Below are positions 3,883 through 59,149 of a DNA stretch of 60,740 nucleotides, in pieces. A model generated the notes under the pieces. That model was not told the DNA's origin. It saw only the letters and a list, made by a program, of their open reading frames with translations, and did no database searches. The stretch is from a bacterium (GTDB lineage: Bacteria > Planctomycetota > UBA11346): contig JAIFND010000039.1 of the NCBI GenBank assembly GCA_020047915.1, positions 1-60,740 on the forward strand, read 5' to 3'. Both the position numbers and the translations under genes were made by a program. Numbering within the stretch: position 1 is the first letter of the stretch; the number at the start of each line of letters is the position of its first letter.

Positions 3883-3969
3883 TGGTGCGCGGGGGGGGAC
3901 TCGAACCCCCACGAATTTTACTTCGCTAGCACCTCAAGCTAGTGCGTCTGCCAATTCCGCCACCCGCGC
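3883..3969 (-). tRNA. tRNA-Leu (anticodon GAG), class II with a long variable arm and encoded CCA.
   Basis: Reverse complement is GCGCGGGTGGCGGAATTGGCAGACGCACTAGCTTGAGGTGCTAGCGAAGTAAAATTCGTGGGGGTTCGAGTCCCCCCCCGCGCACCA. Anticodon stem is CTAGC/GCTAG and the loop is TTGAGGT. Confidence 0.9.
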
Positions 3970-4075
3970 AGGTGGAGCGCGGGATGGTAGGACGCCTGCC
4001 TCGTCGTCAAGACCGGGTATTCCGTGCCGGCAACCGACCATCTCAGCAGCACGCTGCCATCGCCGGCGACCGTGA

Positions 4076-9702: not shown

Positions 9703-9861
9703 GGTCTGGCTCCGGTCAAGCGGGGTGAAGGCCGCACCTGACGCAAGTCGCCGCCAACCGCAAGGACCAGTTGCGGCCCTGGACGACCCCCGCACCATCC
9801 GCCACCCCGCCGGTAAGGTGCGCAGCCCGTGCGCGTCTCCCGGATCCGTAACGGAGTTCCG

Positions 9862-20486: not shown

Positions 20487-20640
20487 ATATCGATTATGGA
20501 CAGCACGCCGACCAAGACAAGAAACAACCCGCCTCGTATCGCACGCCCGTGCGGGTAGCGCCAGACGGGGATTTGAGCCGCATGCCGATCGACTAGGGTC
20601 CGCCATGCCCGCCATCAATCTGCCCCGCCGCCGTGAAGTC

Positions 20641-30989: not shown

Positions 30990-31222
30990 GCTGGCATGTT
31001 CAGCGTCCATCGCCCCGGACCAAGCTGGCGGATTGCCCGTTCCATCCCGTGTGTGAAAGACGACGGGGATGGTGATGGTTGCGTATCCGTTCCAACCACT
31101 ATCGTCCGCCCCCGCACAGCTGGACCCCGGGAGCAGGAAGCCTCCGAATCTGGTCAGGCCTTGACGGGAGCAGCCATAAGGTGGCGGCCAGCGTCCCGGG
31201 TCATCTGGCTGTGCATTTCTCC

Positions 31223-31255
31223 GACCTGGCCCGCCGCATTGCGGCGGGCCAGGTC
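31223..31255 (+). promoter_or_regulatory. Perfect 15-bp GC hairpin with a 3-nt loop, followed by ATTT, 15 nt before the glycerate kinase start codon.
   Basis: gacctggcccgccgc-att-gcggcgggccaggtc-atttcc. Confidence 0.45.
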
Positions 31256-31270
31256 ATTTCCGGACCACGC

Positions 31271-32578
31271 ATGACCGATCCGCTCGTTGCGATGCTCCAT
31301 GCCGCGCTGGGGGCAGTCGAGCCCGGCAACGCGGTGCGGCGGCACCTGCGCCGGGATGGTGGACGCCTGGTCCTCAGCGACGGCCGCTCGCTGCCGCTTG
31401 GACGGCGCACCGTCGTGGTCGGCGCCGGTAAGGCCTCGGCACCGATGGCCGCCGCCCTCGAGGACCTGCTTGGCCAGGACCTGGATGCTGGCGTCGTGGT
31501 GGTGAAACATGGGCATACCTGTCCATTGCAGAAGATCCGGCTGATCGAAGCCGGGCATCCGGTGCCCGACGACCAGGGGCTGGCCGGGGCCACAGCCCTG
31601 ATGCAGGCGGTGAGCGGACTCACGTCCGATGACCTGGTGATCTGCGCCCTGTCGGGCGGGGCCAGCGCCCTGCTGCCGGCTCCGGTCGCCGGACTGGATC
31701 TCGCGGACAAGCAGGCCGTCACCCGGTTGCTGCTCGCCAGCGGTGCCGACATCCAGGCGGTGAACACCGTGCGCAAGCATCTCTCGCGCCTCAAGGGTGG
31801 CCGTCTGGCGGTGCAGGCCGCCCCGGCTCCGCTCCTGACCCTCGCCATCTCGGACGTGATCGGTGATGATTGGGGGACGATCGGCAGCGGTCCGACCGTA
31901 GCGGATCCGACCACCCTGGGCGAGGCGCAAGCGGTCTGCCGCGCCGCCGGCATCTGGGACGCCCTGCCGCCAGCCGCCCGCACGGCGCTGTGCGATCCCC
32001 GGCATGAGTCGCCCAAGTCCGATCACGCCTGCTTCACCACCGCCAGCTGTCTGCTGGTCGCGAGCAACGCCCTGGCCCTGTCCGCGATCGCGGCCGCCTG
32101 TCCGGATTACGGTTTCCGGGCCCAGCTCGATCCCGCCGTTCTGCACGGCGAGGCCGCCGAGGCTGCCCTCCGCTTCGTCGCCCAGGCGGCGGAACTCGCC
32201 CGGGCCGGCCGGGCGACAGCCCTGATCGCAGGCGGCGAGACCACGGTCACGCTGGGCGCGCACCCCGGCCTGGGTGGTCGCAACCAGGAGTTCGCCCTCG
32301 CCGCCGCCCTCGCGCTCGAGCGCCTGGACCCGAGCCTGTCCCGCCGCATCCGCATCCTGGCGGCCGGCACCGACGGTAATGACGGCCCGACCGATGCGGC
32401 CGGTGGCCTGGTCGAGGCCACTACGGCCGCCCGCATGCGCCAGGCCGGGCGCGACCCGCAGCGCGACCTGCTGTCCCATGACGCCTACCCATGCCTGGCC
32501 GCAGCCGGGGCCCTGCTGCGCACTGGGCCGACCTGCACCAACGTCATGGACGTCGCGATCGCGCTGATCGCGGCGTGA
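31271..32578 (+). CDS. Glycerate 2-kinase / hydroxypyruvate reductase family (DUF4147 plus MOFRL).
   Basis: VVGAGKASAPMAAALE, SGGASALL, IAGGETTVTL, AAGTDGNDGPTDAAG, GPTCTNVMDV. Confidence 0.85.
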   Translation: MTDPLVAMLHAALGAVEPGNAVRRHLRRDGGRLVLSDGRSLPLGRRTVVVGAGKASAPMAAALEDLLGQDLDAGVVVVKHGHTCPLQKIRLIEAGHPVPDDQGLAGATALMQAVSGLTSDDLVICALSGGASALLPAPVAGLDLADKQAVTRLLLASGADIQAVNTVRKHLSRLKGGRLAVQAAPAPLLTLAISDVIGDDWGTIGSGPTVADPTTLGEAQAVCRAAGIWDALPPAARTALCDPRHESPKSDHACFTTASCLLVASNALALSAIAAACPDYGFRAQLDPAVLHGEAAEAALRFVAQAAELARAGRATALIAGGETTVTLGAHPGLGGRNQEFALAAALALERLDPSLSRRIRILAAGTDGNDGPTDAAGGLVEATTAARMRQAGRDPQRDLLSHDAYPCLAAAGALLRTGPTCTNVMDVAIALIAA

Positions 32579-43907: not shown

Positions 43908-44819
43908 ATGGATGCGACCATTACGATCATGGCCAGGAACCCCGCGCAGTTCACCATCGTCACTGACTTCCCGCCCCGCACCTGCGACACCTCGCCGTCC
44001 TTCGCCCGCTCGCTGGCCAGCCTGGCGCTGCCCCAGGTCAGCGCCGCACTCTACGCATGCACCGCCGCCTGGCGCATTCCGCGCCGGCGCCAACGCCATG
44101 ATCTGCTGCTGCTGCCGCTGGCCGGTCGCCTCAAGGCCGGCATCGATGGGCGCTGGTACGCCCTCTCCCCGCGCCGGCTGCTGCTCGCCCCGCGTGGCAG
44201 CTGGGTGCAGGCCGAGGCCGATCCAGCCGCCCCGCCGCGCCTGGCCATCATCGTCCTGCGTGCCGACACCGCGGGCGGGATACCGGTGCAGGTGGCGGCC
44301 GGACTGCCGTGGGCGGTGCAGCTGCGCGACGAGGACGGCGTCGAGGCCCTGCTGCTCGCCGCCTGCCGCGAGGACGCGCAGCGCGCTCCTGGCTGGCAGC
44401 CGGCCGTGCATGCCCTGGTCATCCAGGCGCTGGTGGCGGTCGCGCGCCGCGCCGGAGCGCGCACCGCCATCCGCAACCCGGCTTCAGCCGGCGCGCTGGC
44501 ACGCATCAGTCCGGCCCTGGCGGTGATGAGCCAGGACCTCGCCCAGCCGCTGCGTATCCCCGAGCTGGCGCTGGCCTGCGGACTGGGCGCGGTGCAGTTC
44601 CGCCGCCTGTTCCGCGCCGCCCTGGCGCGCACGCCGATCCAGCACCTGCACCGCCTGCGTCTGGCCGAGGCGCAACGCCTGCTCGCCGGGGGGGCGCTGG
44701 TGCATGAGGCGGCCGAGGCGGTGGGTTACCGCTCCAGCGCCTGCCTCGACCGTATCTTCCGCCGCCTCGCCAACGCCCCGCCGGGGCGCTGGCGGCAGAC
44801 GGCGCTGGGCCTCACCTGA
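43908..44819 (+). CDS. AraC-family transcriptional regulator.
   Basis: C-terminal double HTH (IPELALACGLGAVQFRRLFR ... EAAEAVGYRSSACLDRIFRR). Divergent from the corrinoid genes. Confidence 0.78.
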   Translation: MDATITIMARNPAQFTIVTDFPPRTCDTSPSFARSLASLALPQVSAALYACTAAWRIPRRRQRHDLLLLPLAGRLKAGIDGRWYALSPRRLLLAPRGSWVQAEADPAAPPRLAIIVLRADTAGGIPVQVAAGLPWAVQLRDEDGVEALLLAACREDAQRAPGWQPAVHALVIQALVAVARRAGARTAIRNPASAGALARISPALAVMSQDLAQPLRIPELALACGLGAVQFRRLFRAALARTPIQHLHRLRLAEAQRLLAGGALVHEAAEAVGYRSSACLDRIFRRLANAPPGRWRQTALGLT

Positions 44820-46449
44820 TCGCCGGCACCCCGTCCCACGCCAGGATCAGGGCGCCACGCCGCGCCAGGTCGGCCCACACCGCGATGCGCCGGGCCCCGG
44901 GCACGAAGGCCGTGGCATCGACCAGTCCCAGACGCGCGGCCAGGCCACTGCCCTTGGGAAAGCGTTCGAGCGGCAAGGGGGCAGCCTCGCCGGCGAAGGC
45001 GCGCGCCCGCGCCACCGCGCTCGCCAGGGTGCCCAGGCCATCAGCCAGGCGCTCGGCGACCGCCTGCTCGCCGGTGAAGACCCGGCCCTGGGCGAGGGTG
45101 TCGATGCGCTCGCGGGGCAGGTTGCGGCGCTGCGCGACCAGGCGGCGGAACCGGTCGTCGACATCGGCGATGACCCGGCGATACACCGCCTCGCGCTCGG
45201 CCGTCCAGCCGAAGGGCGACATCAGCGCCCCATGCGGCGCGGCCAGTTCGACGTGGCGGCGCACGCCGAGGAGGTCGGCGGCCCCCTGCAGATCGGGGAC
45301 CATGGCGAAGGCGCCGATCGACCCAGTGATGGTGGCGCGGTGGACGCGGATCTCGCGCGCCGCGCAAGCGATCCAGTAGCCGCCGCTGGCGGCCACGCCA
45401 TCCATCAGGCAGACCACCGGCTTGGCCTCGTCGAGGCGGCGCACAGCGTGGTGGATGCGGTCGCTGGCGGTGGCATCGCCGCCCGGCGAGTCGATGCGCA
45501 GCACCACCGCCGCAACCCGGCGGTCGTCGCGCAACCGGTCGAGCAGGGCGCAAGTGTCGCCATCAGCGACGGTGTCGCCGGGCATCGAATGCTCGCCTGG
45601 GATGATCATGCCGGCCAGCTCGACCACCGCGACCGAGCGCGCCGGACGCGCCGCGGAATCACCGCCGAGCAACTGGCCCCAGAAGCGCATCATCCCGGCG
45701 AAGCTGCTGAGGTCGGGAACCTCGGCCCCGAAACGCACGCGGCGCAAGGGCGTGGGCTGCGCCGCCAGCCAGGCGCCCGGCTCGACCGCCTGAGTGACCA
45801 GGCCAAGGCCCTTGGCCGCGCTGCCGGTCTGCAGGCCCTCGGCCCGCGCCTTGGCCAGGTCCAGGCCCGGACGCGCCGCCAGGGACACCAGCACACGGTC
45901 CATCCCCTCGATCAGTTGGCGCATCTCGGCCCGGGCGGCATCCGAGGGCCCCTCACGGGTGAAGGTCTCGGGAGCGGTCTTGAACTCGCCGCTGGCCACG
46001 GCGTGGAAGCGCACCCCGACCCGCGCCAGCGCAGGGGCCAGGTACCAGCCCTCGGCCGCCAGGCCATGCACCGCGAGGACGCCAGCGGCGGGCATCACCA
46101 CCTCGTCGCAGGCCGCGGCGATGACCAGGGCGGGGTCGCCGACCCGGTCGAGCAGGCAGGCGACGCTGGTACCGGGGCCGCGCTCGCGCAGCACCGCTGC
46201 GATCTCCTCGGCGGCGGCCAGGCCCCCCGAAAAACCGCGCGACAGGTCGAGGACGAGGCGTGCCTCGCCCGCCGCCAGGGCGTCGCGCAGCTTGGTGGTC
46301 ACCTCGTGCAGCGACGGGTCACCGCCGCCGAGGAAGCCTTCGGAGGGGCGCAGGGCGAGATCCCCGTTCAGGGTCAGCAGCACCGTCCCGCGCGCCTCGC
46401 CGGCGGCGAGGGCGAGGGTGGCGAAAAGCGCCAGGATGATGCGAAGCAT
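44812..46449 (-). CDS. sppA: Signal peptide peptidase SppA, two-domain (67K) type.
   Basis: Two ClpP/crotonase-fold halves, GVAASGGYWIA (Ser nucleophile region), signal anchor MLRIILALFATLALAAG. ATG at 46447-46449. Confidence 0.85.
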   Translation of the reverse strand: MLRIILALFATLALAAGEARGTVLLTLNGDLALRPSEGFLGGGDPSLHEVTTKLRDALAAGEARLVLDLSRGFSGGLAAAEEIAAVLRERGPGTSVACLLDRVGDPALVIAAACDEVVMPAAGVLAVHGLAAEGWYLAPALARVGVRFHAVASGEFKTAPETFTREGPSDAARAEMRQLIEGMDRVLVSLAARPGLDLAKARAEGLQTGSAAKGLGLVTQAVEPGAWLAAQPTPLRRVRFGAEVPDLSSFAGMMRFWGQLLGGDSAARPARSVAVVELAGMIIPGEHSMPGDTVADGDTCALLDRLRDDRRVAAVVLRIDSPGGDATASDRIHHAVRRLDEAKPVVCLMDGVAASGGYWIACAAREIRVHRATITGSIGAFAMVPDLQGAADLLGVRRHVELAAPHGALMSPFGWTAEREAVYRRVIADVDDRFRRLVAQRRNLPRERIDTLAQGRVFTGEQAVAERLADGLGTLASAVARARAFAGEAAPLPLERFPKGSGLAARLGLVDATAFVPGARRIAVWADLARRGALILAWDGVPAIR

Positions 46450-46457
46450 ATCCGTGG

Positions 46458-46552
46458 GCTGGAGGCTGAAGGCTGGAGGCTGGAGGCTCCCAGCCACCCG
46501 CCGACAGGTCCCGCGGCCCCCAGCTTCCAGCCTCCAGCTTCCAGCCTCCAGC
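46458..46552. repeat. Inverted tandem-heptamer element F3. (GCTGRAG)x4 at 46458-46487, ~32-nt spacer, (CAGCYTC)-type arm at 46520-46552. Lies between a small ORF and sppA.
   Basis: gctggaggctgaaggctggaggctggaggc ... ccagcttccagcctccagcttccagcctccagc. Confidence 0.88.
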
Positions 46553-46556
46553 TTTC

Positions 46557-46844
46557 TCATATCAGCCCCTTGCGGCCATAGGCCCGTTCGATCACCCCGG
46601 GCAGGTGGTCGTAGGCATTGCGCAGGTCGCCGGGTTCGCCGTGCACGGCAGTGAAGAAGTCGGCTCCCCGGTCGGTCGGCTTGATCCCGACCAGGACGAA
46701 GCTCATCCCGCCGAGCACGACCTGGATCGCCTTGCGCTGGTCCTCGCTCAGCCCGTCAAGGCCGGCCGGGGCGGCCGGTTCTGGTGCCGGCGCGGCCGGC
46801 TTGGCCCCTGCCGCACCAGGGAAACGGATGATCTTGTCGCTCAT
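46557..46844 (-). CDS. Hypothetical 95-aa protein.
   Basis: ATG at 46842-46844, with codon bias consistent with coding. No recognisable motif. Divergent from pilM. Confidence 0.45.
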   Translation of the reverse strand: MSDKIIRFPGAAGAKPAAPAPEPAAPAGLDGLSEDQRKAIQVVLGGMSFVLVGIKPTDRGADFFTAVHGEPGDLRNAYDHLPGVIERAYGRKGLI

Positions 46845-47048
46845 GCCGGGACGGTCGGAGGTTGACCAGGAGGCGCAAGGGCGCGTCCGGACTTCCAGAC
46901 AGCGGACTCCGCCCATCAGCCCCTCCACGGGTGACACACACACGCTCACCGTACGAACCGCGCCCCTTGGTCCCCGGCAGCGGCCCCGCTAGGGTGGCGC
47001 TACATCCCGGTATGCACCGGGCCGCATCCACCAGCGGGGAAACGCGTT

Positions 47049-48059
47049 ATGGACTCCCATCCGGTCGCCTGGGGCCTCGACATCGGTCACTCGTCGATCA
47101 AGGCCGTCAAGCTGTCGCGCAGTGGCGGCAGCGTCACTGTGCTCGGTTACGCCATCGAACCGGTCACCGTGCCGGAAGGCGGCGACCGTGACCAGGCCGT
47201 CACCGCCGCCATACAGGCGATCGTCGCGCGCGAGGAGTTCGGCGCCACGCCGGTCTTCGCCGCGATCTCGGGCCGCCAGGTGTTCACCCGCCCGGTGAAC
47301 GTCCCGGTGATCAACCCGAAGAAGATGCACACGATGGTCGAGCTGGAGGCCAAGCAGCAGATCCCGGGCAACTTCGACGAGGTCGAATGGGGCTACCACA
47401 GCTCACCCGCCCCCGACGGCGCCTCGCTCGACGTCGCGCTGTTCGCGGTGAAGCGTGAGGTGATCCAGCAGATCATCAGCAAGTGCAAGTCGGTGGGCAT
47501 CAACCTGACCGGCGTGTCGGTGCCCTCGCTGGCGCTCTATAACTTCATCAAGTTCGACCAGGAGTTCCCCGACGGCGAAGCCGTCATCATCCTCGATGTC
47601 GGCGCCGACAACACCGATCTGGTGGTGTACCAGGGCGACCAGCTGTGGATGCGTTCGCTGACCGTGGCCGGCAACGACATCACCCAGGTCTTCGCCAAGA
47701 AGTTCCGCGTCAGCGTGCCCGAGGCCGAAACACTGAAGCGCCAGGTCAACGACAGCCGCCAGGCCGACAAGATCATCAAGGTGATCGAAAGCGGCCTGTC
47801 GGAACTGACCAGCGAGATCAACCGCAGCCTCGGCTTCTACCGCACCCAGAACGCCAGCGCCACGCTCGACAACCTGGTGATCTCGGGCAACACCTTCCGC
47901 CTGCCCGGCCTGCCCGAGTACATGGCCGAGAAGCTGCGCCTGACCATCAACATCCTCGAGGACCTCGACCGCATCCCATGCAGGATCTGCAGTCGCTGGG
48001 CGTCGCCATGGGCCTCGGCCTGCAGGCGACCGGGGTGTCGCGCGCCAACGTCAACCTGA
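47049..48059 (+). CDS. pilM: Type IV pilus assembly protein PilM (actin-like ATPase fold). The last ~30 codons of this frame look out of frame (see frameshift finding).
   Basis: GLDIGHSSIKAVKL, ILDVGADNTDLVV, ISGNTFRLPGLPEYMAEKL. Confidence 0.8.
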   Translation: MDSHPVAWGLDIGHSSIKAVKLSRSGGSVTVLGYAIEPVTVPEGGDRDQAVTAAIQAIVAREEFGATPVFAAISGRQVFTRPVNVPVINPKKMHTMVELEAKQQIPGNFDEVEWGYHSSPAPDGASLDVALFAVKREVIQQIISKCKSVGINLTGVSVPSLALYNFIKFDQEFPDGEAVIILDVGADNTDLVVYQGDQLWMRSLTVAGNDITQVFAKKFRVSVPEAETLKRQVNDSRQADKIIKVIESGLSELTSEINRSLGFYRTQNASATLDNLVISGNTFRLPGLPEYMAEKLRLTINILEDLDRIPCRICSRWASPWASACRRPGCRAPTST

Positions 48060-48862
48060 TGCCGAGCGCGCTGCAGACCGAGAAGCTGCTCGCGACCAAG
48101 CGCTGGGCGGCGGCTGCCATTGTCGCCATGCTCGCCGGCACGGTCTATGCCGACTACGCTATCGCCAGCAGCGCCAACGACACCAACGTGCGCCTGGCGC
48201 AGACGGTGAAGCGTTACGCCGACGAGAACCGTGATCGCATGAGCGAGTCCACCGAGGTTTTACGCCTGGTCCAGGACCTCGCCCCCCAGCTGGCCCGCTT
48301 CGACGCCATCGGCTCCAACCAGGGCCTGGCCCACGCCGCGCTCGCTGGGGCGACCGGCATCGTGCAGATGATCGCCACGACCCCCGAACTGCGCCCGACC
48401 ATCCCGGCGGCGCTGGCCGAGAGCACGCCGGCCCTGCAAGCGGCCTACCTGCGCAGCGTCGAGCTGCAGCCCAGCACGGAAGGCGGCGGCAAAGTGGCCG
48501 ATCCGTTCAACCCGTTGGGCAGTCCGCGTACCGTCACCGTCCAGGTGGACATCCCCAGCGGCGCCCGCCAGGGCGAGGTGCGCTCGTCGCTGCTCAAGGC
48601 GCTGCGCGAGATGCCGGTGCCCGCCCACCTCCAGGACCTGACCAGGACGCCGACCCTGTTCAGCGAGGTGCAGGCGACCAGCGACATCGAGGGTACGATC
48701 GACTGGTGGTATCTCGATCGCAACCATCTGGATGACAAGGGCGATGCGAAGCCGATCGAAGAGCGCAAGAGCCTCTCGACCAGCGTCACCACCTACACCT
48801 GCACCATCGCCGCGCCCTCGGCGCCTGCCGCACCTGTCGTGGCCGTGGAGACCAAGCCGTGA
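47978..48862 (+). CDS. PilN-like membrane protein that carries the missing PilM C-terminus at its N-terminal end.
   Basis: LGVAMGLGLQATGV (PilM C-terminal GLALR-type motif) followed by ANVNLMPSAL (PilN INLLP motif) and TM WAAAAIVAMLAGTVYADYAIA. Confidence 0.6.
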   Translation: MQDLQSLGVAMGLGLQATGVSRANVNLMPSALQTEKLLATKRWAAAAIVAMLAGTVYADYAIASSANDTNVRLAQTVKRYADENRDRMSESTEVLRLVQDLAPQLARFDAIGSNQGLAHAALAGATGIVQMIATTPELRPTIPAALAESTPALQAAYLRSVELQPSTEGGGKVADPFNPLGSPRTVTVQVDIPSGARQGEVRSSLLKALREMPVPAHLQDLTRTPTLFSEVQATSDIEGTIDWWYLDRNHLDDKGDAKPIEERKSLSTSVTTYTCTIAAPSAPAAPVVAVETKP

Positions 48863-49872
48863 AGCACATCTTCTGGATCGTCTGCGGCGCCCTGTCCCTG
48901 CTCATCCTCGTCGCCTGGTTCGTGGTCGTGCCCACTGCCGACGCGCAGAGCGCCAAGCAGAAGCTCGACCAGCAGGCCAAGGATCTCAAGGATCTCGAGC
49001 GGCGCGCCCTGGCCGGCAACCCGCCCGGCGTGTGGGATGCCGAAAACGCCGCCGAGACCGAGCGCCTCTCGCGTGAATTCCTGATCACCGACCGGTGGAA
49101 GAACACCCTCCAGCCGCACGTGGACAAGTACAAGAAGCAGCTCGAGGACATCCGCACCCAGCTGCTCGGCCGTTCAGGCTGGCTGGCCAAGCCGATCGCC
49201 CCGACCAGCAACGTGCTGGAATGGTACAACGCCTACATCCAGGCCAGCGAGGCGGTTATCGCCAACCTGCGCTCGCGCGGCTGCATGGTCGCGGCCAGCC
49301 CCACCGAAGTGGTCTCGGCGGCCGGTGAAAGCCCCAGCAACGTGCGCGCCGTGATCGGCCTCTACACCAAGTCCGGCTCCTTCCCCGATCCCAAAGAGCA
49401 CCCGCTGCTGACCGCGCGCCTGCGCGTGATCGAACTGCTCGCCGACCGGCTGATCGCGGCCCGCACCGCCATCGCCGACAATCCCCTGGTCGGCCCGACC
49501 GGGCGCAGCGACGACCGCGCCGGCTCCAGCCCGGTGGTGGTGTCGCTCGAATGGACCTCGGCCGGACAGGGCGAGATCGGCCAGACGATCGAGACCACGG
49601 TCTCGAGCCTGGTGACGGTGCGTTCAGTCGGCGTGCGCCTGACGCTGGCTGGTCCGGTCAGCGCCCTGCTCGCCGCCAGCTCGGCCATCGAGGGCAACAC
49701 CAGCACCGACCGGCCGCTGCTGAGCATCGCCAACGCCAGCCTCAGCAAGCGCACGGAATTCGCCGCCGGCGAGCGTTTCGACGCCGCCGCCGAGGCCGCC
49801 CGCCTGGTGCTGACCATCAACGTCCTCGATTTCGCCGCCGTCGCCGCGACGGCCACGCCGGGAGTGAACTGA
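48859..49872 (+). CDS. Membrane-anchored coiled-coil protein in the PilO position.
   Basis: GTGA start/stop overlap, N-terminal TM IFWIVCGALSLLILVAWFVVV, then a coiled coil. Confidence 0.5.
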   Translation: MKHIFWIVCGALSLLILVAWFVVVPTADAQSAKQKLDQQAKDLKDLERRALAGNPPGVWDAENAAETERLSREFLITDRWKNTLQPHVDKYKKQLEDIRTQLLGRSGWLAKPIAPTSNVLEWYNAYIQASEAVIANLRSRGCMVAASPTEVVSAAGESPSNVRAVIGLYTKSGSFPDPKEHPLLTARLRVIELLADRLIAARTAIADNPLVGPTGRSDDRAGSSPVVVSLEWTSAGQGEIGQTIETTVSSLVTVRSVGVRLTLAGPVSALLAASSAIEGNTSTDRPLLSIANASLSKRTEFAAGERFDAAAEAARLVLTINVLDFAAVAATATPGVN

Positions 49873-49873
49873 C

Positions 49874-51721
49874 ATGAGCGCCAAGTCCTTCCTCATCGCG
49901 CACGGCGAGAAGTTGGCCGTGGTGGCCGTCGCCGGGGGCTGCGCCCTGGTCCTGTGGAGCGCCGCGTCCGACGAAAGCATCCGGCCCAAGGACAACCAGC
50001 AGCAGATCGAGGCGATCAACGCCAAGATCAGCCAGGGCTTCCTCAAGAACGAAGCCCCGGTCATGAAGGAGCCGCGGCCCTACCTCGACCAGCTGCTCGG
50101 CCGGCTCTCTGAACAGGCCCCGATCACCCCGACCATGGCCTGGTTGACCGCCCCGCCTGACAAGGGCAAGGGAACCGCCGGCGGCGGTCCGGGGGATGGC
50201 TTCTATTATTTCTACGAACTGCTGACCCCGACCGTGTCGATCAAGGATGCGGTCGGCGCCCTGGAGATCGGCGTCAACGCCCCGGAAACGACCCAGCAGG
50301 GTCTCGGTCGCCGGGTCAGTTCCGAGGCCTCGCGCCGCTGGGAACGCAACGACAAGGGCCCGATCATCAACACTGGCCGCCACCTGGCGCTGCAGGTCGA
50401 GATCAAGATCGGCGATGGCGAATGGCGCCCCCTGGCCCTGCCCGGCGGTTCCAAGGACGGCATCCTGCCGCTGGCCAGCCTCACCCGCGACGCCCTGCGC
50501 AGCATCCCCACGCCTGAACCGTGGCAGTTGCACCAGATCCGCGCCCGGATCATCGCCGCCGCCACCGCCCTCGACCTGGCCGCCCCGTGGGTCGAACGGC
50601 CACGCGCCAGCGTCCTGGTCACCTCCGGACCCGCCTCCGAGGGGCCGACCAAGGACGAAGCCCTGCTCGGCCAGGCGGCCCGCGAGGTCAAGGCCAAGGA
50701 CGGCGCGCTATTCAAGAGCCTGCTGCGTCCGGTCGAGGGGCCACTGCCCCCCGGCACCAAGCTCGAAGCCAACGAGCGGCTGTTCCTCGGCCCGTGGAGT
50801 CCGGTCGCCGCGGTCGAGGCCACCGCCAGCGTGCGCTTCGCCCTGGTCGGTCTCAGCACTGGCATGGATCCCAACGATCCGACCAAGAGCCGCGACGTCG
50901 GCCGCTTCCTCCTGCTGCGCCTGTTCGCCAAGGGTGCAGAACGCAAATGGATGGAGAAGCCGATCGAGGAGAAGTTCGGCCAGGGCGATGTGCTGGGGAT
51001 CAAGGACCACACCATGGTCGACCCCTTCGGCGCGGCCAAGATCCGCGTCGATCTGCCCACCCCCTTCGTGGTCGAAAAACTGGTCAAGGACCAGAAGCGC
51101 ATCATCTACTGGTCGCTCAAGCCGAAGGCCCGCCCTGCCGGTGGCAAGGACCGCGACCTGGTGCTCGACAAGAAAGAGGTCGCGACCGACATCGTGGTGC
51201 TGAAGAACCCCGACAGCGGCAGCGAACTGGTGCTGACCAAGCTGATCTCGATCAGCCCGCCAGCCAACGCCGACACCCTGATCTATCCGCACCGCACCGC
51301 GACCTACTCGGAGAAGGACGAGTTCGCCAAGGCGCCCAGTGATTTCCGCCAGTGGGGCCTGCAACCCGAGGCGCCCAAGGCGTATGAGGCCGGCACCGGC
51401 CCCCTCGCCGACCTCTACCGGGCGCGCAAGGACGAAGGCGCCCTCGATGCCGAAAACTACGCTACCGATACCACCTACTACGTCATGCCGGATGCCCGGG
51501 TGGTCTGGTGGGATACGGTCGAGCACAAGGTCAAGATCGAGGACCCGCGCGGCGTCATGACGGCCAAGAGCGAAGCTCCGGCCGCACCGCCCGCTGGCGA
51601 TCCGGCCGGCGAAGCGGCGCCAGCGCCGCAGCAGCCCGGACCGGCCCCCAAGCCGGCGGCCCCGTCCGGCGCAGCCTTCGGCCAGCCCCCGCCCCCCACT
51701 CTCCCCGGCAAGCGTCCCTGA
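49874..51721 (+). CDS. Hypothetical 615-aa membrane-anchored protein with a Pro-rich C-terminus.
   Basis: ATG 1 nt after the previous stop, N-terminal TM LAVVAVAGGCALVLW. No recognised domain. Confidence 0.5.
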   Translation: MSAKSFLIAHGEKLAVVAVAGGCALVLWSAASDESIRPKDNQQQIEAINAKISQGFLKNEAPVMKEPRPYLDQLLGRLSEQAPITPTMAWLTAPPDKGKGTAGGGPGDGFYYFYELLTPTVSIKDAVGALEIGVNAPETTQQGLGRRVSSEASRRWERNDKGPIINTGRHLALQVEIKIGDGEWRPLALPGGSKDGILPLASLTRDALRSIPTPEPWQLHQIRARIIAAATALDLAAPWVERPRASVLVTSGPASEGPTKDEALLGQAAREVKAKDGALFKSLLRPVEGPLPPGTKLEANERLFLGPWSPVAAVEATASVRFALVGLSTGMDPNDPTKSRDVGRFLLLRLFAKGAERKWMEKPIEEKFGQGDVLGIKDHTMVDPFGAAKIRVDLPTPFVVEKLVKDQKRIIYWSLKPKARPAGGKDRDLVLDKKEVATDIVVLKNPDSGSELVLTKLISISPPANADTLIYPHRTATYSEKDEFAKAPSDFRQWGLQPEAPKAYEAGTGPLADLYRARKDEGALDAENYATDTTYYVMPDARVVWWDTVEHKVKIEDPRGVMTAKSEAPAAPPAGDPAGEAAPAPQQPGPAPKPAAPSGAAFGQPPPPTLPGKRP

Positions 51722-51852
51722 CCCGCCGGTGAGAGTGACACCACGGACGCCGGCAGGGCCTTAGCCCTCCGGCCTCCGCCCCCCATCCTAGCATCCACCA
51801 GCCCGCCGGCATGCCTTCGCACGCATGCCACCATCGCCCAGAGGGACGCCCC

Positions 51853-54348
51853 ATGCGCTCGCGTTCACCCCTCCATAACCACCGCCTGCCGCTGACTCCG
51901 CTGCTGCTCGCCATCGCCGCCATGGTGCCAGCTGCAGAGCCCGCCGTGCAGCCGGAGGCGCCTGGAGATACGGCCGTCGCCAGCCAGCCCGGCCAGGCTG
52001 AAGTGGCTGCCGACGCCAAATACACCGAGGCCCTCGGCCGCTACCGTGCCGGCGCCTTCGCCGAGACCCTTGATCTGGTCGAGCAGGCCGTCGCCCTGTA
52101 TCCGCCCCATCGCGGCGCCCAGCAGTTGCGCAGCGATGTGCTGGCCGTGCTGTCCAACCGCGCCAACCGCCTGCGCATGGCGGCGAGCTGGTTCGGCAGC
52201 CTGCAGGACATCCGCACCCAGGAGACCGCCGTCCGCCTCAGCGCCCTGCTCGAGCGCGGCGACAAGGCGATGGCTGCGGGTGACTTCGCCGCCGCCGAGC
52301 TGGACTACGACCGGGTCGAGATCGGCATCCGCTCGTTCCCGTACAAGTTCGACTGGGGCGAACTGCCCAAGCAGGTCGCCGACAAGCGCAACGCCGCCCG
52401 CGACCGGGCGCGCGGAGCCGAACTGCAGCGTCAGCAGGACGACCGCACCGCCGCCGCCGAGACCGCCCGCCAGCAGGCCGACCTGCAGGCCGAGGCCCTG
52501 CGCCTCAAGGTCGATGAACTGATGCGCCGCGCCACCGCGGCCTTCAACCGCAAGGACTACCGTCGCTCCGAGGTCGAGGCGTGGAACGCCTACGAACTCG
52601 ACCGCCGTCGCGAGGACGCCCGCGAACTCTACCTCGATTCGCGCCGCGAAGGCCATTACTCCTTCGACGTCGCCTACCGCGTCGAGCGCACCGAAGGCAT
52701 CGCCCGGGTCGCCGAAGAGGTGCACAAGTCGCTGATCCCGCAGAACGAACTGCTGGTCTATCCCGAGGACTGGCAGCGCCGCACCTTGCGCAAGCCGCGC
52801 GAGATCGGCACCTCGAAGGCCGAGCCGTGGATGGCCGCACTCAACGACCGCATGGAACAGCGCGTCACCTTCGACTTCCAGGACCAGAGCTTCGAAGATG
52901 TCGTCACCTTCCTGCGCCAGGTGACCGGCGTGAACATCATCGTCGCGCCCGAAGTGCTGGCCGCTGCCGGCGGCGGCACGGTCACGCTCAAGGTGCGCGA
53001 CATGCGCTTCCGCGATGCGCTGAAGTGGATCCTCGAGATCACCGGCCATCACATGGCGATCCAGGACCAGGCGATCTTCATCAACAACCAGCCGGTGACC
53101 GGCGCGGTGGTGCTGCGCCTCTACGACGTCACCGACCTGATCACCCCGGTGAAGGACGAGCCGGGCGCCGAATTGGCCTACTCGGCCGCCAGCGGCGGCA
53201 GCGGCGGCGGCGACCTGCTGGGCAGCTCGGGCGGCGAAGAGACGGCTGCCGCCGACCCCGAAGCCCTGGTCACCTTTATCAAGAACAACGTCACCAAGGA
53301 CGCCTGGGACAAGGATGACGTCAGCATCCAGCAGCGCAGTGGTTCGACCCTGTTCGTCAGCCAGACCCCCGAAGGCCACGAACTGGTCGCCCAGTTGCTC
53401 GCCAACCTGCGCAACCAGACCGCCATGCAGGTCAACGTCAGCGTCCGCCTGCTTGATGTGCGCAAGGGATTCTTTGAGGAGATCGGGGTCGAGTGGCACA
53501 ACAACCCGACCAACATGATCAGTTCGCCGATCGCCAACAACTCCGGCGTCTATAACGTCACGACCAACGGCAACGCCACCTCCGGCTCGGGCACCAGCCT
53601 GGGCGGCACCCTGTACCAGCAGCTGCCCGGCAACGCCACCTCGATCGGCTATGGCATCACCCCGACGATCAACCTCGGGCAGGCCCTCCCCAAGGGCCTG
53701 GTCCTGGAAGGATTCGCCCAGGGATTCCTCGGCATGGACCAGGTCAACGCGATCTTCAGCGCCGCTGAAGACGAGACCGACGCCACGGTGCTCAACCACC
53801 CGCAGATCACCTGCTTCAACGGCCAACGTGCCAACGCCGCCTTCATCGGTCAGTACGCCTACATCAAGGACTACGAGATCGTCTCCAGCAACTACGATCC
53901 GGTGATCGAGGTGCTGAACTACGGCGACCTGCTTGATGTGCGCCCGGTGATCTCCAGCGACCGTAAGTATGTCACCATGGAGATCCGTCCGACCAACGTC
54001 GGCCTGGTCGGTGTCTTCGTCGAATACATCGCCGCCTACCAGATCGTTGGCAACACCGGTACGACCGGCGGCGTAGTCGTCCCCGCCACCTTCCCGATCG
54101 AGTTGCCGAACGTGCAGGTGCAGACCCTGCGCAGCACGGTGATGATCCCCGACCGCGGCAGCCTGCTGATCGGCGGCTTCAACCGCTCGCTGCGCCAGCG
54201 CACCCACAGCGGCATCCCCTTCCTCAGCCACATCCCCTTCCTCGGTCGTCTGTTCAGCCGCAACGGCACCTACGACGAAAGCCGCAAGATCTTCTTCCTG
54301 CTCTCCGCAACCATCCTCGACCTGGCCGAGAGCGAGCAGCAGCAGTGA
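51853..54348 (+). CDS. Secretin (GspD/PilQ family), paralogue 1, with a TPR/coiled-coil N-terminal region.
   Basis: N-domain VTFDFQDQSFEDVVTFLRQVTGVNIIV. Secretin core from NVSVRLLDVRKGFFEEIGVEW to SGIPFLSHIPFLGRLFS. Confidence 0.85.
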   Translation: MRSRSPLHNHRLPLTPLLLAIAAMVPAAEPAVQPEAPGDTAVASQPGQAEVAADAKYTEALGRYRAGAFAETLDLVEQAVALYPPHRGAQQLRSDVLAVLSNRANRLRMAASWFGSLQDIRTQETAVRLSALLERGDKAMAAGDFAAAELDYDRVEIGIRSFPYKFDWGELPKQVADKRNAARDRARGAELQRQQDDRTAAAETARQQADLQAEALRLKVDELMRRATAAFNRKDYRRSEVEAWNAYELDRRREDARELYLDSRREGHYSFDVAYRVERTEGIARVAEEVHKSLIPQNELLVYPEDWQRRTLRKPREIGTSKAEPWMAALNDRMEQRVTFDFQDQSFEDVVTFLRQVTGVNIIVAPEVLAAAGGGTVTLKVRDMRFRDALKWILEITGHHMAIQDQAIFINNQPVTGAVVLRLYDVTDLITPVKDEPGAELAYSAASGGSGGGDLLGSSGGEETAAADPEALVTFIKNNVTKDAWDKDDVSIQQRSGSTLFVSQTPEGHELVAQLLANLRNQTAMQVNVSVRLLDVRKGFFEEIGVEWHNNPTNMISSPIANNSGVYNVTTNGNATSGSGTSLGGTLYQQLPGNATSIGYGITPTINLGQALPKGLVLEGFAQGFLGMDQVNAIFSAAEDETDATVLNHPQITCFNGQRANAAFIGQYAYIKDYEIVSSNYDPVIEVLNYGDLLDVRPVISSDRKYVTMEIRPTNVGLVGVFVEYIAAYQIVGNTGTTGGVVVPATFPIELPNVQVQTLRSTVMIPDRGSLLIGGFNRSLRQRTHSGIPFLSHIPFLGRLFSRNGTYDESRKIFFLLSATILDLAESEQQQ

Positions 54349-56606
54349 CCGCAGCGGCCGGCAGGACGACGATTCGGGGGCTCGCGCGCCAGCGCGTGAC
54401 GCGCCCCGTCGTCGCCATCCTGCTGGTCGCCGCCAGCCTGGCGGGCGGCGAGGCCCTGCCGGCAGACCGGGTTGAACAACGCCAGGCCGACGAGCAGGCG
54501 CGCACCGCGGCTTTGGGACCGGCGCTGGATGACGCCCGCTTCCTGCTTGCTGCCGGCCAGGCGCGGGTGGCGGCAGACCACCTGCGCAGCGCCCTGGTCG
54601 GCGTCCCCGCCGACGCCCCGCGGCGCGCCGAGGCCGCCAGCCTGCTGGCCGAGGCTGAGTCCGCCCAGGCAGCCAACGATCTGAGCGCGGAAGACGCCGC
54701 CCGTCAGAGCAGCGCCGCCAACGCCACCGCCGGCGCCGCCCGCGAGGCCGGCGTCCGCAGCAGCCTGCGCGCCGAGCGCCTGGCCCGCATCCGCGACCTG
54801 CGTCAGCGCGAACACCACGAACTGGCCCTGGCGCACTGCCGCGTGCTGTTGCGCGACCTGCCAGCCGACACCGAGGTCGAAGCCGAGTACCGGGAACTGC
54901 TCGACCTCGCCCATGCCGCCCGCCGCAGCAGCATCGCCGAACGCGAGCGTGACCTGCGTTCCGAGATCGCCCTGTTGGTCGAACGCTCGCTGATCCCCGA
55001 AGGCTTCGATGGCGAACCGGTGTGGCCCGCGGACTGGGACCAACGCCGGGCCGGCCGGCGCAGCCGCCTGGATGCCGGCCCAGAGGCAGCGAGCGACTCG
55101 GATGCGGTACGCGACCGCCTGGCCCAGCGCGTAACCATCATCTTCGACGCGACTCCAGCTGTCGATGCCCTGGCCCAACTTGCCCGCCTCGCCGGGATCA
55201 GCATCGTGGTGGCGCCCGAACTGCAGGCCGCCGCCGACCGCATCGTCACCCTGCGCGCAGCGCGCATGCGGCTTGAAGATGTGCTGACCTGGATCACCGA
55301 ACAGGGCGGGACGCGCTGGTCGATCACCAAGGGCGCCGTCTTCGTCGGCGACCAGGCGACCAGCGACCGCACCGTCGCGCTGCATGACATCGGCGGCCTG
55401 ATGCTCGGCGCGGTGGACCAGCCCGGCCCGGTGATGGCCATGAGCACCGCCGACGGCGCCTCTGGCGGCGCCAGTCTGGTCGCCGCCGAACCGGCGGCCA
55501 CGGCCGTCGCGACCGGGGACGACATCGCCGACCTGATCCGCCGCGTGGTCAGCCCGCGGCTCTGGGAACAAGAGGGCAATGCCATCGTCGTGCGCGGGAC
55601 GACCCTGCTGGTCACCGCCCCGCAAGAGGCGCAGACCCTGATCCGCGAGTTCATCCGGGCCCAAGAGGCGCAACGCAGCCTGGCGGTGCGCATTGATGCC
55701 CGCTGGCTGGAACTGACCGACCGCTTCGTCGAGGAGATCGGCGTCCAGTGGACTTCGGGGGCCGGCACGATGGTCGCCCCGGCCAACGGCCAGCCCTCGG
55801 CTGGCTTCCTGCGCCGGACCGGTGCCTGGTCGGTGGCAGCCAACTCCACCAACCAGTTGCCAGGCACCGCCATGTCCGTGGTCCCCGCGACCAGCGGCAC
55901 CGGCCTGACCCTGCAGACCTCGTTCTTCGGTGAGAACAAGTTCAACGCCATCCTCAGCGCCCTGGAACGCAATGCCCAGGGCCGCGTGCTGCAAGCCCCC
56001 GAGGTCACCTGCCTGAACGGCCAGCAGGCGCACGCCGTCTTCGCCAGCCAGTTGGCCTACATCAGCGACTACGAGATCGTCGCCAGCTATCCCGATCCGG
56101 TCATCTCGGTGCTGAACCTGGGCACGATGATCGAGGTCCGCCCGATGATCAGCGCGGACCGCAAGTATGTCACCCTGGACCTGCGCACCTCGGTCAGTTC
56201 CGCGACCCTGTTCACGGAATACATCGACTACTTCGTGACCATTCCAGGCACCTTGCTGGATCCGAATGCGCTCACCCCGCCGCCGAATGCGGATGACGTC
56301 GGTACCCAGTACCTCGACAACCTGCTGCTCATCGAAACGTCCGCCCGCGCCCCGATCGAATTGCCGAACGTCGCCGTGCAGGCGACCGCCACCACGGTGA
56401 TGGTGCCGGATCGCGGCAGCCTGCTGGTCGGCGGCTTCACCCGCAGCCTCGACCAGTTCAGCTCGACCCGGGTGCCGCTGCTCGGATCGATCCCCTTCCT
56501 CGGCCGGCTGTTCGGCGCCCGTGGGCGCTACGCCGACCGCACCAAGCTCTACCTGATGTCCACCGTCTCGATCATCAACTACCCGGAACTGGAGGCCCGC
56601 CTGTGA
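54345..56606 (+). CDS. Secretin (GspD/PilQ family), paralogue 2.
   Basis: GTGA overlap. VTIIFDATPAVDALAQLARLAGISIVV, AVRIDARWLELTDRFVEEIGVQW, RVPLLGSIPFLGRLFG. Confidence 0.85.
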   Translation: MTAAAGRTTIRGLARQRVTRPVVAILLVAASLAGGEALPADRVEQRQADEQARTAALGPALDDARFLLAAGQARVAADHLRSALVGVPADAPRRAEAASLLAEAESAQAANDLSAEDAARQSSAANATAGAAREAGVRSSLRAERLARIRDLRQREHHELALAHCRVLLRDLPADTEVEAEYRELLDLAHAARRSSIAERERDLRSEIALLVERSLIPEGFDGEPVWPADWDQRRAGRRSRLDAGPEAASDSDAVRDRLAQRVTIIFDATPAVDALAQLARLAGISIVVAPELQAAADRIVTLRAARMRLEDVLTWITEQGGTRWSITKGAVFVGDQATSDRTVALHDIGGLMLGAVDQPGPVMAMSTADGASGGASLVAAEPAATAVATGDDIADLIRRVVSPRLWEQEGNAIVVRGTTLLVTAPQEAQTLIREFIRAQEAQRSLAVRIDARWLELTDRFVEEIGVQWTSGAGTMVAPANGQPSAGFLRRTGAWSVAANSTNQLPGTAMSVVPATSGTGLTLQTSFFGENKFNAILSALERNAQGRVLQAPEVTCLNGQQAHAVFASQLAYISDYEIVASYPDPVISVLNLGTMIEVRPMISADRKYVTLDLRTSVSSATLFTEYIDYFVTIPGTLLDPNALTPPPNADDVGTQYLDNLLLIETSARAPIELPNVAVQATATTVMVPDRGSLLVGGFTRSLDQFSSTRVPLLGSIPFLGRLFGARGRYADRTKLYLMSTVSIINYPELEARL

Positions 56607-59149
56607 AGCCCCTGACCTGCCGCCACACCCGCCGCCTGGCGCTTACCGCCACCATGCTCGCCCTGTGCGCCGCCTCGCTGCAGTCGGGCGAGGCCGTCCC
56701 GCCGGCCCAAAGCGGTGCGGCCGCTGAACTCGAGCGCTACGCCGCCGAACGCGCCGCCCACCAGGCCGGGGGCAACCAGGCCGCCGAGTTCCACTACGTG
56801 CGCGGCATGCGCGCCAAAGAGGAGAACCGGCTCGCCGAAGCGGTGCGTGAACTGACCCTGGCGGTCGATTATGCCCCAAGCAACGAGGCCTACGGCAAGG
56901 AACTGAGCGCGGTACGCGCCCTGGCCGGCCTCGAGCGCGATCCGCGCTCGCAGCAGATCGACCGCCTGGTCGATGAGGCCCAGGTCAAGGACCAGGAACT
57001 GTGGAACGAGGCCCAGGCCAAGAAGGAGGCCGGCATCGCCGCGATGCAGTCCGGTGACTTCAACCTCGCCGACCGCTCGTTCCAGATGGCCCTGGTGCGC
57101 CTGGAAAGCCTGCCCTTCGCCGACGAGCGCAAGCTGGCGGCGTTGCGCGAGGTCGAGACCCTGGCCTCTGACGCGCGCAGCCGCCGCGAAGCCAAGGACC
57201 GCACCGTCGCCGCCGAGCGCAACCGCAGCGCCCAGGACCGCAGCCAGCAGTTGCGCGACCTTGGACTGCAGCTCGAGCGCGACCGCATCGACGCGATGCT
57301 GCGCCGCGCCCTGCGCGCCCGTGAGCGCCGCGACTACGACGAGTCGATCCTGATCTGCGAACAGGTGCTGAAGCTGAACCGCGCCGACGAACGCGCCGCC
57401 GACCTGCTGGCCAAGTGCCGGCGCGAACGCCACGTCTATATCCGCCAGATGACCGCCGACCGCTGGGACGAAGAGCACCGTCTCCTCTCCGAGTCGATCC
57501 GCAGCTCGATGCTGCCGCAGCTCGAACTGGTGCGCTACACCACCGAGTGGCCCGAGCTCGACGCCCGGCGCAGCGCCCCGGTGCAGGGTCTCGAGGAGAA
57601 GAACGAGGCCTGGCGCAAGGAGATCGCCAACCAGCTCGAACAGGAGATCACCCTCGACTTCTCCGATACCGACCTGGTCGATGTGGTCGGCTTCCTGCAG
57701 CGCGTGACCAATGCCAACATCGTCCTCGACCCGCGCGTGGCGGCCGGCAGTCCGGCCCCGGTGACGCTGCGCGTCGATCGCATGAAGATGCGCTTCGTCC
57801 TCGATTTCATCATGCGCATCACCAATCTGAAATACACGTTGCGCAACGAGGCGATCTACATCAGCAACGAACAGGGCACGCGCGGCGACCTGTTCATGAA
57901 GATGTACGACGTCCGCGACCTGACCCACGCGATGGACAGCTTCCCCGGCCCCAGCCTGGAGATCCCCAAGCCGGGTGGCACCGGCAGCCAGCTGCTGCCC
58001 CCGACCGCGGCCGAGACCAAGCCGGAGACCTCGGAGTTCATCGAGATCATCCAGCAGGTCGTCTCCCCGGCCAGTTGGAGCCCGGATGCCGGCACCACGA
58101 TCGAGGAATACAACGGCGCGATGGTGGTGAACCAGAGCGGCGAGGTGCATATCCAGATCGACGAGCTGCTGCGCGCCCTGCGCAACCAGCGTGGCTCGCA
58201 GATCCACGTGAAGTGCAAGTTCCTGTCGGTCGAGAACTCGATGCTCGAGGAGATCGGGGTCAGCTGGCAGAACTACAATGCCGCCAACCGCCCCAATGGA
58301 CCCGGTGGCACGCTACCAGGGTATAATGCTGGCGGCGATCCCAATGGCACCACCACCGGCACCACCGCCCCCGACCTCCAGGTCGGCGGCGCCTGGGGTG
58401 CACCCACCGACCAGATCCTGACCGCCGGGCGCATCAACAACCAGTTGCTCAGCTACACCAGCGGTACCACCCTGGCCACCGGTGGCGGTCTGAACCTGCA
58501 GACCCAGAGCTGGCAGTTGGCCTCGAACTTCTGGGCCAGCGCCATCCTCAACGCGGTCGAGAAAGACCGCCGTTCGAACGTCACTTTCGAGCCCGACATC
58601 ACGTTGTTCAATGGCCAGCAGGCCCACATCGTGAACATGAACCAGCAGTCCTACATCTCGGACTACGACGTGGTCCAGGGCCAGTACGACCCGATCATCT
58701 CGATCCTGTCCTACGGCACCGTGCTGGACGTGAAGGCGATCGCCTCGGCCGACAAGAAGTACATCACTCTGAGCCTGCGCCCGACCAACGCCCAGGTGCA
58801 GGCCTGGCGCCGCTTTGGCCCGCCCGCCGTCGGCTGGCCGGGCGGCCCGGTCGATCAGACCGGCTCGGCCGTGGCAGCTGGCTTCGGCAGCTTCCCGCTG
58901 CTCATCCCGCAGTTGTCCTACAATGCCGTGCGCACCTCGGTCACCGTCCCCGACGGCGGCTCGCTGGTCATCGCCGGCATGACCAACGGCGACAGCCGGC
59001 GCAGCCATGCTGGCGTGCCCTTCCTGTCCCACATTCCCTTCCTCGGTCGCCTGTTCAGCTCGAACGGTCGCACCGAGGCCGAGATTCGGCAGTTGATCAT
59101 CGTGCAGGCGGACCTGATCCTGTTCGACGAGATCGAACAGAAGCTCTGA
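56603..59149 (+). CDS. Secretin (GspD/PilQ family), paralogue 3.
   Basis: GTGA overlap. ITLDFSDTDLVDVVGFLQRVTNANIVL, HVKCKFLSVENSMLEEIGVSW, AGVPFLSHIPFLGRLFS. Confidence 0.85.
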   Translation: MKPLTCRHTRRLALTATMLALCAASLQSGEAVPPAQSGAAAELERYAAERAAHQAGGNQAAEFHYVRGMRAKEENRLAEAVRELTLAVDYAPSNEAYGKELSAVRALAGLERDPRSQQIDRLVDEAQVKDQELWNEAQAKKEAGIAAMQSGDFNLADRSFQMALVRLESLPFADERKLAALREVETLASDARSRREAKDRTVAAERNRSAQDRSQQLRDLGLQLERDRIDAMLRRALRARERRDYDESILICEQVLKLNRADERAADLLAKCRRERHVYIRQMTADRWDEEHRLLSESIRSSMLPQLELVRYTTEWPELDARRSAPVQGLEEKNEAWRKEIANQLEQEITLDFSDTDLVDVVGFLQRVTNANIVLDPRVAAGSPAPVTLRVDRMKMRFVLDFIMRITNLKYTLRNEAIYISNEQGTRGDLFMKMYDVRDLTHAMDSFPGPSLEIPKPGGTGSQLLPPTAAETKPETSEFIEIIQQVVSPASWSPDAGTTIEEYNGAMVVNQSGEVHIQIDELLRALRNQRGSQIHVKCKFLSVENSMLEEIGVSWQNYNAANRPNGPGGTLPGYNAGGDPNGTTTGTTAPDLQVGGAWGAPTDQILTAGRINNQLLSYTSGTTLATGGGLNLQTQSWQLASNFWASAILNAVEKDRRSNVTFEPDITLFNGQQAHIVNMNQQSYISDYDVVQGQYDPIISILSYGTVLDVKAIASADKKYITLSLRPTNAQVQAWRRFGPPAVGWPGGPVDQTGSAVAAGFGSFPLLIPQLSYNAVRTSVTVPDGGSLVIAGMTNGDSRRSHAGVPFLSHIPFLGRLFSSNGRTEAEIRQLIIVQADLILFDEIEQKL

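Follow-up and report, generated by a model that had tools for sequence, protein, structure and literature searches.

The nearest described relative of the locus reported here is the Amuc_1098-1102 cluster of Akkermansia muciniphila, which comprises the PilQ-like Amuc_1098, Amuc_1099, Amuc_1100, the PilM-like Amuc_1101 and Amuc_1102 (gene order in PMC5332112). The cluster is thought to form pilus-like structures (PMC4960237; PMC5332112), and its outer-membrane protein joins TPR and secretin domains (PMC4960237). A second point of comparison is the PilMNOPQ gene set of the type IVa pilus, as known in Pseudomonas, Myxococcus, Thermus and the competence pilus of Vibrio cholerae, which has a PilM-family gene first and the secretin gene last. 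In Pseudomonas aeruginosa the secretins XcpQ, HxcQ, PilQ and PscC each lie in a gene cluster of their own and each belong to a machine of their own. Here, we report a six-gene operon on the plus strand (positions 47049-59149) of a 60,740-nucleotide stretch of planctomycete DNA, hereafter the window (Planctomycetota, UBA11346; contig JAIFND010000039.1 of assembly GCA_020047915.1). The operon closes with three consecutive, intact open reading frames (ORFs) encoding secretins, here named S1, S2 and S3. Unlike the dispersed secretin genes of P. aeruginosa, they follow one another head to tail within a single operon, share bases between stop and start codons, and are always inherited together.

The original prediction, made from the letters of the window, placed three consecutive secretin ORFs at 51853-59149 with GTGA start/stop overlaps at 54345 and 56603, and both statements are borne out, the first by the ORF listing and Pfam (E ~1e-21) and the second by direct reading of the junctions (Table 1). 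All three proteins match the Pfam Secretin domain (PF00263) far past chance, S1 with 77.5 bits (E 1.1e-21), S2 with 77.6 bits (E 1.1e-21) and S3 with 76.2 bits (E 3e-21) against a cutoff of 27.5. At both the S1/S2 junction (CAGCAGTGACC) and the S2/S3 junction (CGCCTGTGAAG) the GTG start codon shares four bases with the preceding TGA stop. For S1, the ATG at 51853 is likelier to be the true start than 51811, since it has GAGGGA upstream and the S1 orthologues open with MRSRS. The genes of the operon are otherwise separated by 4-nt overlaps, one 1-nt gap and one gap of 90-130 nt ahead of S1. A promoter and terminator scan of the operon gave no more sites than shuffled sequence.

Table 1. Coordinates of the secretin trio, its junctions and the upstream genes of the operon, as positions of the window.
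Feature	Position	Strand	Basis and remarks
Secretin S1	51853..54348	+	831 aa (845 aa if the start is 51811); ORF listing and Pfam Secretin
Secretin S2	54345..56606	+	753 aa; ORF listing and Pfam Secretin
Secretin S3	56603..59149	+	848 aa; ORF listing and Pfam Secretin
GTGA overlap, S1 stop and S2 start	54345..54348	+	Direct reading, CAG CAG TGA / GTG ACC
GTGA overlap, S2 stop and S3 start	56603..56606	+	Direct reading, CTG TGA / GTG AAG
Fused PilM-PilN-like gene (PilM-N; actin-like ATPase fold plus transmembrane/periplasmic part)	47049..48862	+	TIGR01175, PF11104, orthologues
337-aa protein with N-terminal membrane anchor, in the Amuc_1100 position	48859..49872	+	Kept in all related loci
615-aa protein with N-terminal membrane anchor with conserved HGEK motif, Pro-rich tail	49874..51721	+	Kept in all related loci

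By Pfam and by fold, S1, S2 and S3 are all complete secretins with pore motifs. In their alignment FNGQxA, YDPVI and VPDxGSL are kept in all three, and the terminal IPFLGRLF is identical. An AlphaFold2 model of S3 (mean predicted local distance difference test score, pLDDT, 78.6) consists of a signal peptide, a helical/TPR region (residues 40-303), an N0-like domain (346-436), an N3-like domain (476-531) and a barrel (533-839); the corresponding model of S2 (pLDDT 71.6) has a helical region at 40-259, N0 at 262-348, N3 at 391-444 and the barrel at 447-744. Both models thus have the periplasmic N-domains and the double-walled beta-barrel protomer of the secretin fold. The common build that had been proposed stands as far as the order of parts is concerned, which is the same in the S2 and S3 models and extends to S1 by alignment over its entire length, and for the IPFLGRLF end. 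It does not hold for the N-domain motif of S2, which reads VTIIFDA and not xTxDFxD, nor for its helical region, which is about 90 aa shorter. When the S3 model was compared with solved structures by Foldseek, the best match was the competence PilQ of V. cholerae (6w6m, E 4e-24), followed by InvG, BfpB, GspD, RcpA and pIV (E from 1e-24 to 1e-11 with PilQ included), with GspD, PulD and XcpQ among the matches; a profile search of PDB sequences gave the PilQ of Myxococcus (3jc8) first. In Pfam, S3 also matches TPR_2 with 25.2 bits, under the cutoff of 27 (E 1.5e-5), and matches the GspD N0 domain weakly. Judged by eye, S1, S2, S3 and their orthologues begin with a hydrophobic stretch and an AxE/AGE-type cleavage site, and the same inspection revealed no conserved lipobox cysteine in any of them. 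A cysteine in the signal peptide of the window copy of S3 had raised the question of a self-piloting lipoprotein, which was rejected as this residue is not conserved among the orthologues.

The distribution of the trio was followed through GTDB genomes, metagenomes of the Joint Genome Institute (JGI; with a wider PilM-N alignment) and exact-protein look-ups. The GTDB scan was built on a three-sequence PilM-N alignment with narrow patterns and yielded six loci, the clade is known from metagenome assemblies only, and contexts outside the clade come from five loci. In 16 non-redundant contigs, the window included, the order PilM-N, a protein of ~340 aa, a protein of ~610 aa, S1, S2 and S3 is retained, and in every one of them each secretin has its own window counterpart as its best match, with PilM-N identity down to 42%. 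In five more, the contig ends behind S1 or S2, and what is present agrees with the trio. Among the related contigs with enough DNA there was no case of fewer than three secretins, and none of the three had been lost or moved; S1, S2 and S3 were full length in every genome seen. The GTGA overlap of S2 and S3 is present in all non-redundant contigs that show both genes (16/16). Orthologues of S3 form more than 120 clusters at 51-81% identity, all from Planctomycetota metagenome-assembled genomes where the source names them, while orthologue identity is 45-74% for S1 and 33-56% for S2. A profile search with the family gave 1,841 representatives at E<=1e-30, most of them matching across the full TPR-to-barrel length, and a search with distant S2-like sequences gave 15 matches.

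Two local variants of the arrangement were observed. One related contig (L011) carries an extra 206-aa gene at 9332-9952, between the ~610-aa gene and S1, that encodes only a secretin piece resembling N0 and N-domains and matches the family hidden Markov model with E 5e-36 over positions 358-513. In another (L034, 13716-14716), about 1 kb of the S2 barrel differs from the otherwise near-identical contig L035 (S1 99.9%, PilM-N 100%) at 123 positions, either through recombination or because this may be a surface part of S2 that varies between strains. A general strain-level hotspot in the S2 barrel was rejected, as no such stretch was found in three other pairs of related contigs.

S1, S2 and S3 are old, separately conserved paralogues under purifying selection. 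They share 35% (S1/S2), 31% (S1/S3) and 30% (S2/S3) identity, with S1 and S3 aligning end to end and S2 aligning only from its N-domain on, and their N-terminal helical regions are the most divergent part (15-22% identity). In every domain, orthologue identity exceeds paralogue identity. In a neighbour-joining tree rooted on a verrucomicrobial homologue (300 bootstraps), S1 and S3 are each monophyletic at 100% and S2 at 88%. The ratio of nonsynonymous to synonymous substitution rates (dN/dS), taken from genome pairs close enough for unsaturated dS, was 0.12-0.19 for S1, 0.15-0.19 for S2 and 0.10 for S3, compared to 0.13-0.14 for PilM-N in the same pairs; S2 is the fastest-evolving of the three. 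The low identity, the full-length paralogues, their separate orthogroups and the selection on them rule out recent tandem duplicates in decay, the outcome that had been named as fatal to the original prediction. Two ancient duplications of the pore gene gave this lineage its three copies, all of which have been kept together since.

The three genes upstream of the trio were described in the original prediction as pilM/N-like genes and two unrecognisable membrane-anchored proteins. The PilM and PilN-like content is confirmed, with 140.2 bits to TIGR01175 (cutoff 133) and 120.9 bits to PF11104 (PilM_2; cutoff 27, E 7e-35), and the best NCBIfam match of the PilM part is the Amuc_1101 family (E 5e-51), with a score of 174 bits against a cutoff of 650. 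It is, however, one fused gene: each orthologue is a single ORF (599-625 aa) that joins PilM to a PilN-like transmembrane/periplasmic part, and the window copy looks split in two frames as its frame switches near 47976. Independent assemblies of four sequencing runs from the microbial-mat study that gave the window all have 31 extra nucleotides, AGGTCGCCGCCGGCCTCGACCGCACCCACTT, between 47976 and 47977. These restore the frame as DRIQVAAGLDRTHFMQD, which makes the break an artefact of assembly; 31 nt is also a word size that assemblers often use. A frameshift reflecting decay of the operon or a natural split of the gene is ruled out by the same four assemblies.

The two proteins that follow do have N-terminal membrane anchors and no Pfam or NCBIfam match, as had been predicted. 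The 337-aa protein also gave no direct or significant match in profile searches of the PDB, and 19 of its orthologues gave no match to PF28028, the Amuc_1100 family, at E<=1. Its comparison with a verrucomicrobial Amuc_1100-family protein reached an hhalign probability of 50% (E 1.6e-4), and two to three orthologues have weak matches to T2SSM, the GspM/PilO type. By position it may be the equivalent of Amuc_1100, for which the support from homology is marginal, and it is possibly PilO/GspM-like. The 615-aa protein, whose orthologues are present in all related loci at 25-64% identity, has detectable relatives only inside the clade; nothing significant was found for it in Pfam, NCBIfam or PDB searches, and it does not resemble the protein that stands in the place of Amuc_1099.

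The resemblance to the Akkermansia-type clusters lies in the parts and their order. In the verrucomicrobial clusters as in the window, the PilM-N fusion comes first, then a protein of ~330 aa and another unknown protein, and last a TPR-plus-secretin outer-membrane protein, and neither kind of operon contains an ATPase or pilin gene. In two verrucomicrobial loci (L010, from Candidatus Didemnitutus, and L051), PilM-N is accompanied by an Amuc_1100-family protein, a protein of ~305 aa and a single TPR-secretin of 887-925 aa, while L049, another locus of the Planctomycetes-Verrucomicrobia-Chlamydiae (PVC) group, combines PilM-N with three unknown proteins and a single secretin. For the nearest relatives of the trio, the original prediction is thus right that canonical systems have only one secretin, and the window operon differs from them in having three. 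It also differs in its 615-aa protein, which is unrelated to its Amuc_1099-position counterpart and twice as large, and in having no Amuc_1102-like gene upstream. S1 and S3 have the Amuc_1098 family (NF042912) as their best NCBIfam match, with scores (S1 92.5, S2 64.5 and S3 88.9 bits) that fall far below the equivalog cutoff of 750 and cover only the C-terminal ~140 residues. The Amuc_1098-type layout, in which a secretin with a TPR/helical N-terminus is encoded behind a PilM fusion like Amuc_1101, is found in architecture and in synteny with L010 and L051. Since the verrucomicrobial loci and L049 carry one secretin, the window operon is the planctomycete form of a pilus-like scaffold of the whole PVC group, with one pore gene turned into three.

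Compared to PilMNOPQ, the operon agrees in the first and last positions but has PilM and PilN fused and three secretins in place of one PilQ. Neither PilO nor PilP was recognisable in it by Pfam, NCBIfam or profile searches. The AMIN domain (PF11741) gave no Pfam match in S1-S3, which, unlike PilQ, have a long helical/TPR region in the N-terminal place, and the scores to the PilQ model TIGR02515 (76.6, 68.8 and 73.5 bits for S1, S2 and S3) are well under its cutoff of 284. As in GspD, the secretin barrel comes after periplasmic domains of the N0- and N3-like kind, and type_II_gspD is the best NCBIfam match of S2 (E 5.6e-28). The GspD model TIGR02517 is nevertheless reached at only 68.3, 97.8 and 66.9 bits by S1, S2 and S3 against a cutoff of 351, and where GspD has N0-N3 the window secretins are modelled with two ring domains and an N-terminal TPR extension that is absent from GspD.

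Tandem secretins have arisen elsewhere in the phylum. Two contigs from another Planctomycetota lineage (L047, 10001-15886; L048, 6809-12829) share a conserved pair of TPR-secretins of ~1000 and ~930 aa. Each copy has its own orthogroup (97% and 86%), and because both copies form one clade (92% bootstrap), this duplication is independent of that of the trio. In L047 the pair is followed by three unknown proteins and ExbB/ExbD. PilM-like proteins of ~830 aa at 26-28% identity were also found in one metagenome set (L041-L043, 10001-11206; L044, 3291-4496). These loci, together with L038, were rejected as the same system as they have no secretin within 10 kb, and the PilM-like proteins of L041-L044 probably belong to a different one.

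Strict co-inheritance, fixed gene order and the GTGA overlap in 16 of 16 contigs make the original idea of a heteromeric, stacked or substrate-specific set of channels more plausible. Of these, a stacked channel is unlikely because all three secretins retain a complete membrane barrel. Choosing among the readings on the genomic pattern, we tentatively prefer a single machine with a mixed (heteromeric) S1-S2-S3 ring. In this reading the operon encodes the envelope-spanning scaffold of a PVC-type, type IV pilus-like machine, made up of the cytoplasmic and inner-membrane PilM-N fusion, two membrane-anchored periplasmic proteins and the outer-membrane pore. Translational coupling would provide S1, S2 and S3 in matched amounts for co-assembly in one ring. 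Known secretin rings are 12- or 15-fold symmetric, and a 1:1:1 repeat would fit either number. The differing N-terminal helical and N0/N3 domains could give such a channel three kinds of periplasmic contact, with the fibre or cargo, ATPase, platform protein and pilins presumably encoded elsewhere in the genome.

Several observations weigh against the mixed ring. To our knowledge every solved secretin, the matched PDB entries included, is a homo-oligomer with one secretin species per ring. The overlap of S1 and S2 is not universal, as it (GTGA or ATGA) occurs in 9 of 19 non-redundant contigs and the spacing in the rest is -1 to 66 nt. The sister relationship of S1 and S2 has a bootstrap value of 68% only, in a tree obtained by a distance method alone. 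In the independent L047/L048 pair the genes are uncoupled (gaps of 105 and 174 nt) and do not adjoin PilM-N. Co-transcription and coupling would also fit three separate homomeric pores made together.

Three such homo-oligomeric pores with the PilM-N platform and regulation in common are the main alternative, though a rather unlikely one; each would serve its own fibre, substrate or place in the cell, such as distinct pilus types, secretion as opposed to uptake, or pole as opposed to body. It accords with the homo-oligomeric state of the solved secretins, and bacteria with several secretins usually assign each to one system. Each paralogue of the trio has its own signal peptide and full domain set, so that self-assembly is possible, and the strong divergence of the helical regions fits different partners. 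However, none of the three has been lost or moved in the genomes examined; the invariant S2/S3 overlap is more typical of subunits needed in a fixed ratio, and the operon has a single set of platform genes.

Distinctly less probable is that one of the three, most likely S3 or S1, forms the pore, and that the others, S2 being the candidate, are helpers that still insert in the outer membrane, be it as assembly or piloting factor, as cap or plug, or as spacer in the peptidoglycan or periplasm. The faster evolution of S2 (33-56% orthologue identity against 45-77% for S1 and S3 together) and its shorter helical region point in this direction. No separate pilotin gene was seen in the operon, and a pilotin-like role has been proposed for the TPR region of the Akkermansia PilQ (PMC4960237). 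Opposed to it is the retention of each barrel motif and each C-terminal motif in all three secretins, along with similar dN/dS values and no copy marked by loss of pore features. That the trio consists of redundant tandem duplicates without distinct roles, kept by chance or for dosage, is most improbable given paralogues only 30-35% identical, three stable orthogroups with none lost in 16 contigs, and purifying selection on all three, as dosage duplicates normally stay alike or vanish.

The mixed ring can also be put in a stronger form, which we hold possible with somewhat less confidence than the mixed ring itself: that S1, S2 and S3 form an obligate hetero-oligomer, for example of four or five repeats, and that mixed pores have evolved more than once in planctomycetes. 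The latter part would follow, if true, from the independent tandem pair in the other lineage.

The window is a chromosomal contig of 69% G+C. In line with the original prediction, the ORFs scanned in the window include neither a pilus ATPase nor a platform protein or pilin, and there are no gsp genes in the window. The other scanned ORFs are housekeeping genes: flgH/flgI, an ATP-binding cassette (ABC) system, pfk, a selD-like gene with selA, a scpA-like gene and the signal recognition particle (SRP) RNA. Further genes are gpsA, rbfA, infB, nusA, a corrinoid/RACo set, an AraC regulator, SppA, ligA, a two-component pair and a tRNA. SppA, the S49 signal-peptide peptidase, lies with a 130-aa gene divergently beside the operon (44812-46949, minus strand) and close relatives share this arrangement. 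The distant locus L049, with its single secretin, also has an SppA gene just behind that secretin; the link of SppA to the operon may be functional or due to chance.

Some of the remaining genes have features of their own. The small bacterial SRP RNA (31117-31214; Rfam, 48 bits) falls within the 5' end of the ORF listed at 31079-32578, a glycerate-kinase-like gene of the DUF4147/MOFRL type, whose true start is therefore further downstream. The gene at 20479-22356, which lies directly upstream of selA and overlaps it, encodes a selenophosphate-synthetase-like protein (AIRS domains) that ends in a fused carboxymuconolactone-decarboxylase (CMD) domain. The ScpA match in the 1021-aa protein encoded at 26612-29677 (minus strand) is confined to its first ~265 residues, the remainder having no Pfam match. 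Positions 1-4000 have a G+C content of 62-64% compared to ~69%, and harbour a LuxR-type response regulator, a histidine kinase and a tRNA (3886-3969, minus strand).

The original prediction had left room for the arrangement being a widespread and already described feature of the clade. The trio is universal in this planctomycete clade, but no description was found in the searchable literature: full-text searches on secretin, PilM and PilQ in Planctomycetes, on crateriform structures and on heteromeric, tandem or multiple secretins gave no account of tandem or heteromeric secretins. So far as could be found, the conserved coupled trio is undescribed; each of its parts belongs to a known family and is ordinary in itself. 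A 2025 review still counts the components that underlie the fibres and crateriform structures of planctomycetes among the unknowns (PMC12673574; also PMC5394234). That the PVC-type complex is the protein basis of these structures is much less likely than the mixed pore, yet the operon offers a concrete candidate gene set for the surface fibres and craters of planctomycetes.

Three diverged, coupled secretins in one operon constitute a natural test of heteromeric secretin rings, and the trio is relevant to the way in which subunits could share out ring symmetry, gating and docking in the periplasm. The locus ties the genomes of uncultured planctomycetes to the Amuc_1098-1102 cluster of Akkermansia, of which Amuc_1100 is of medical interest. 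If true, a mixed S1-S2-S3 ring would be the first secretin pore made of different subunits.

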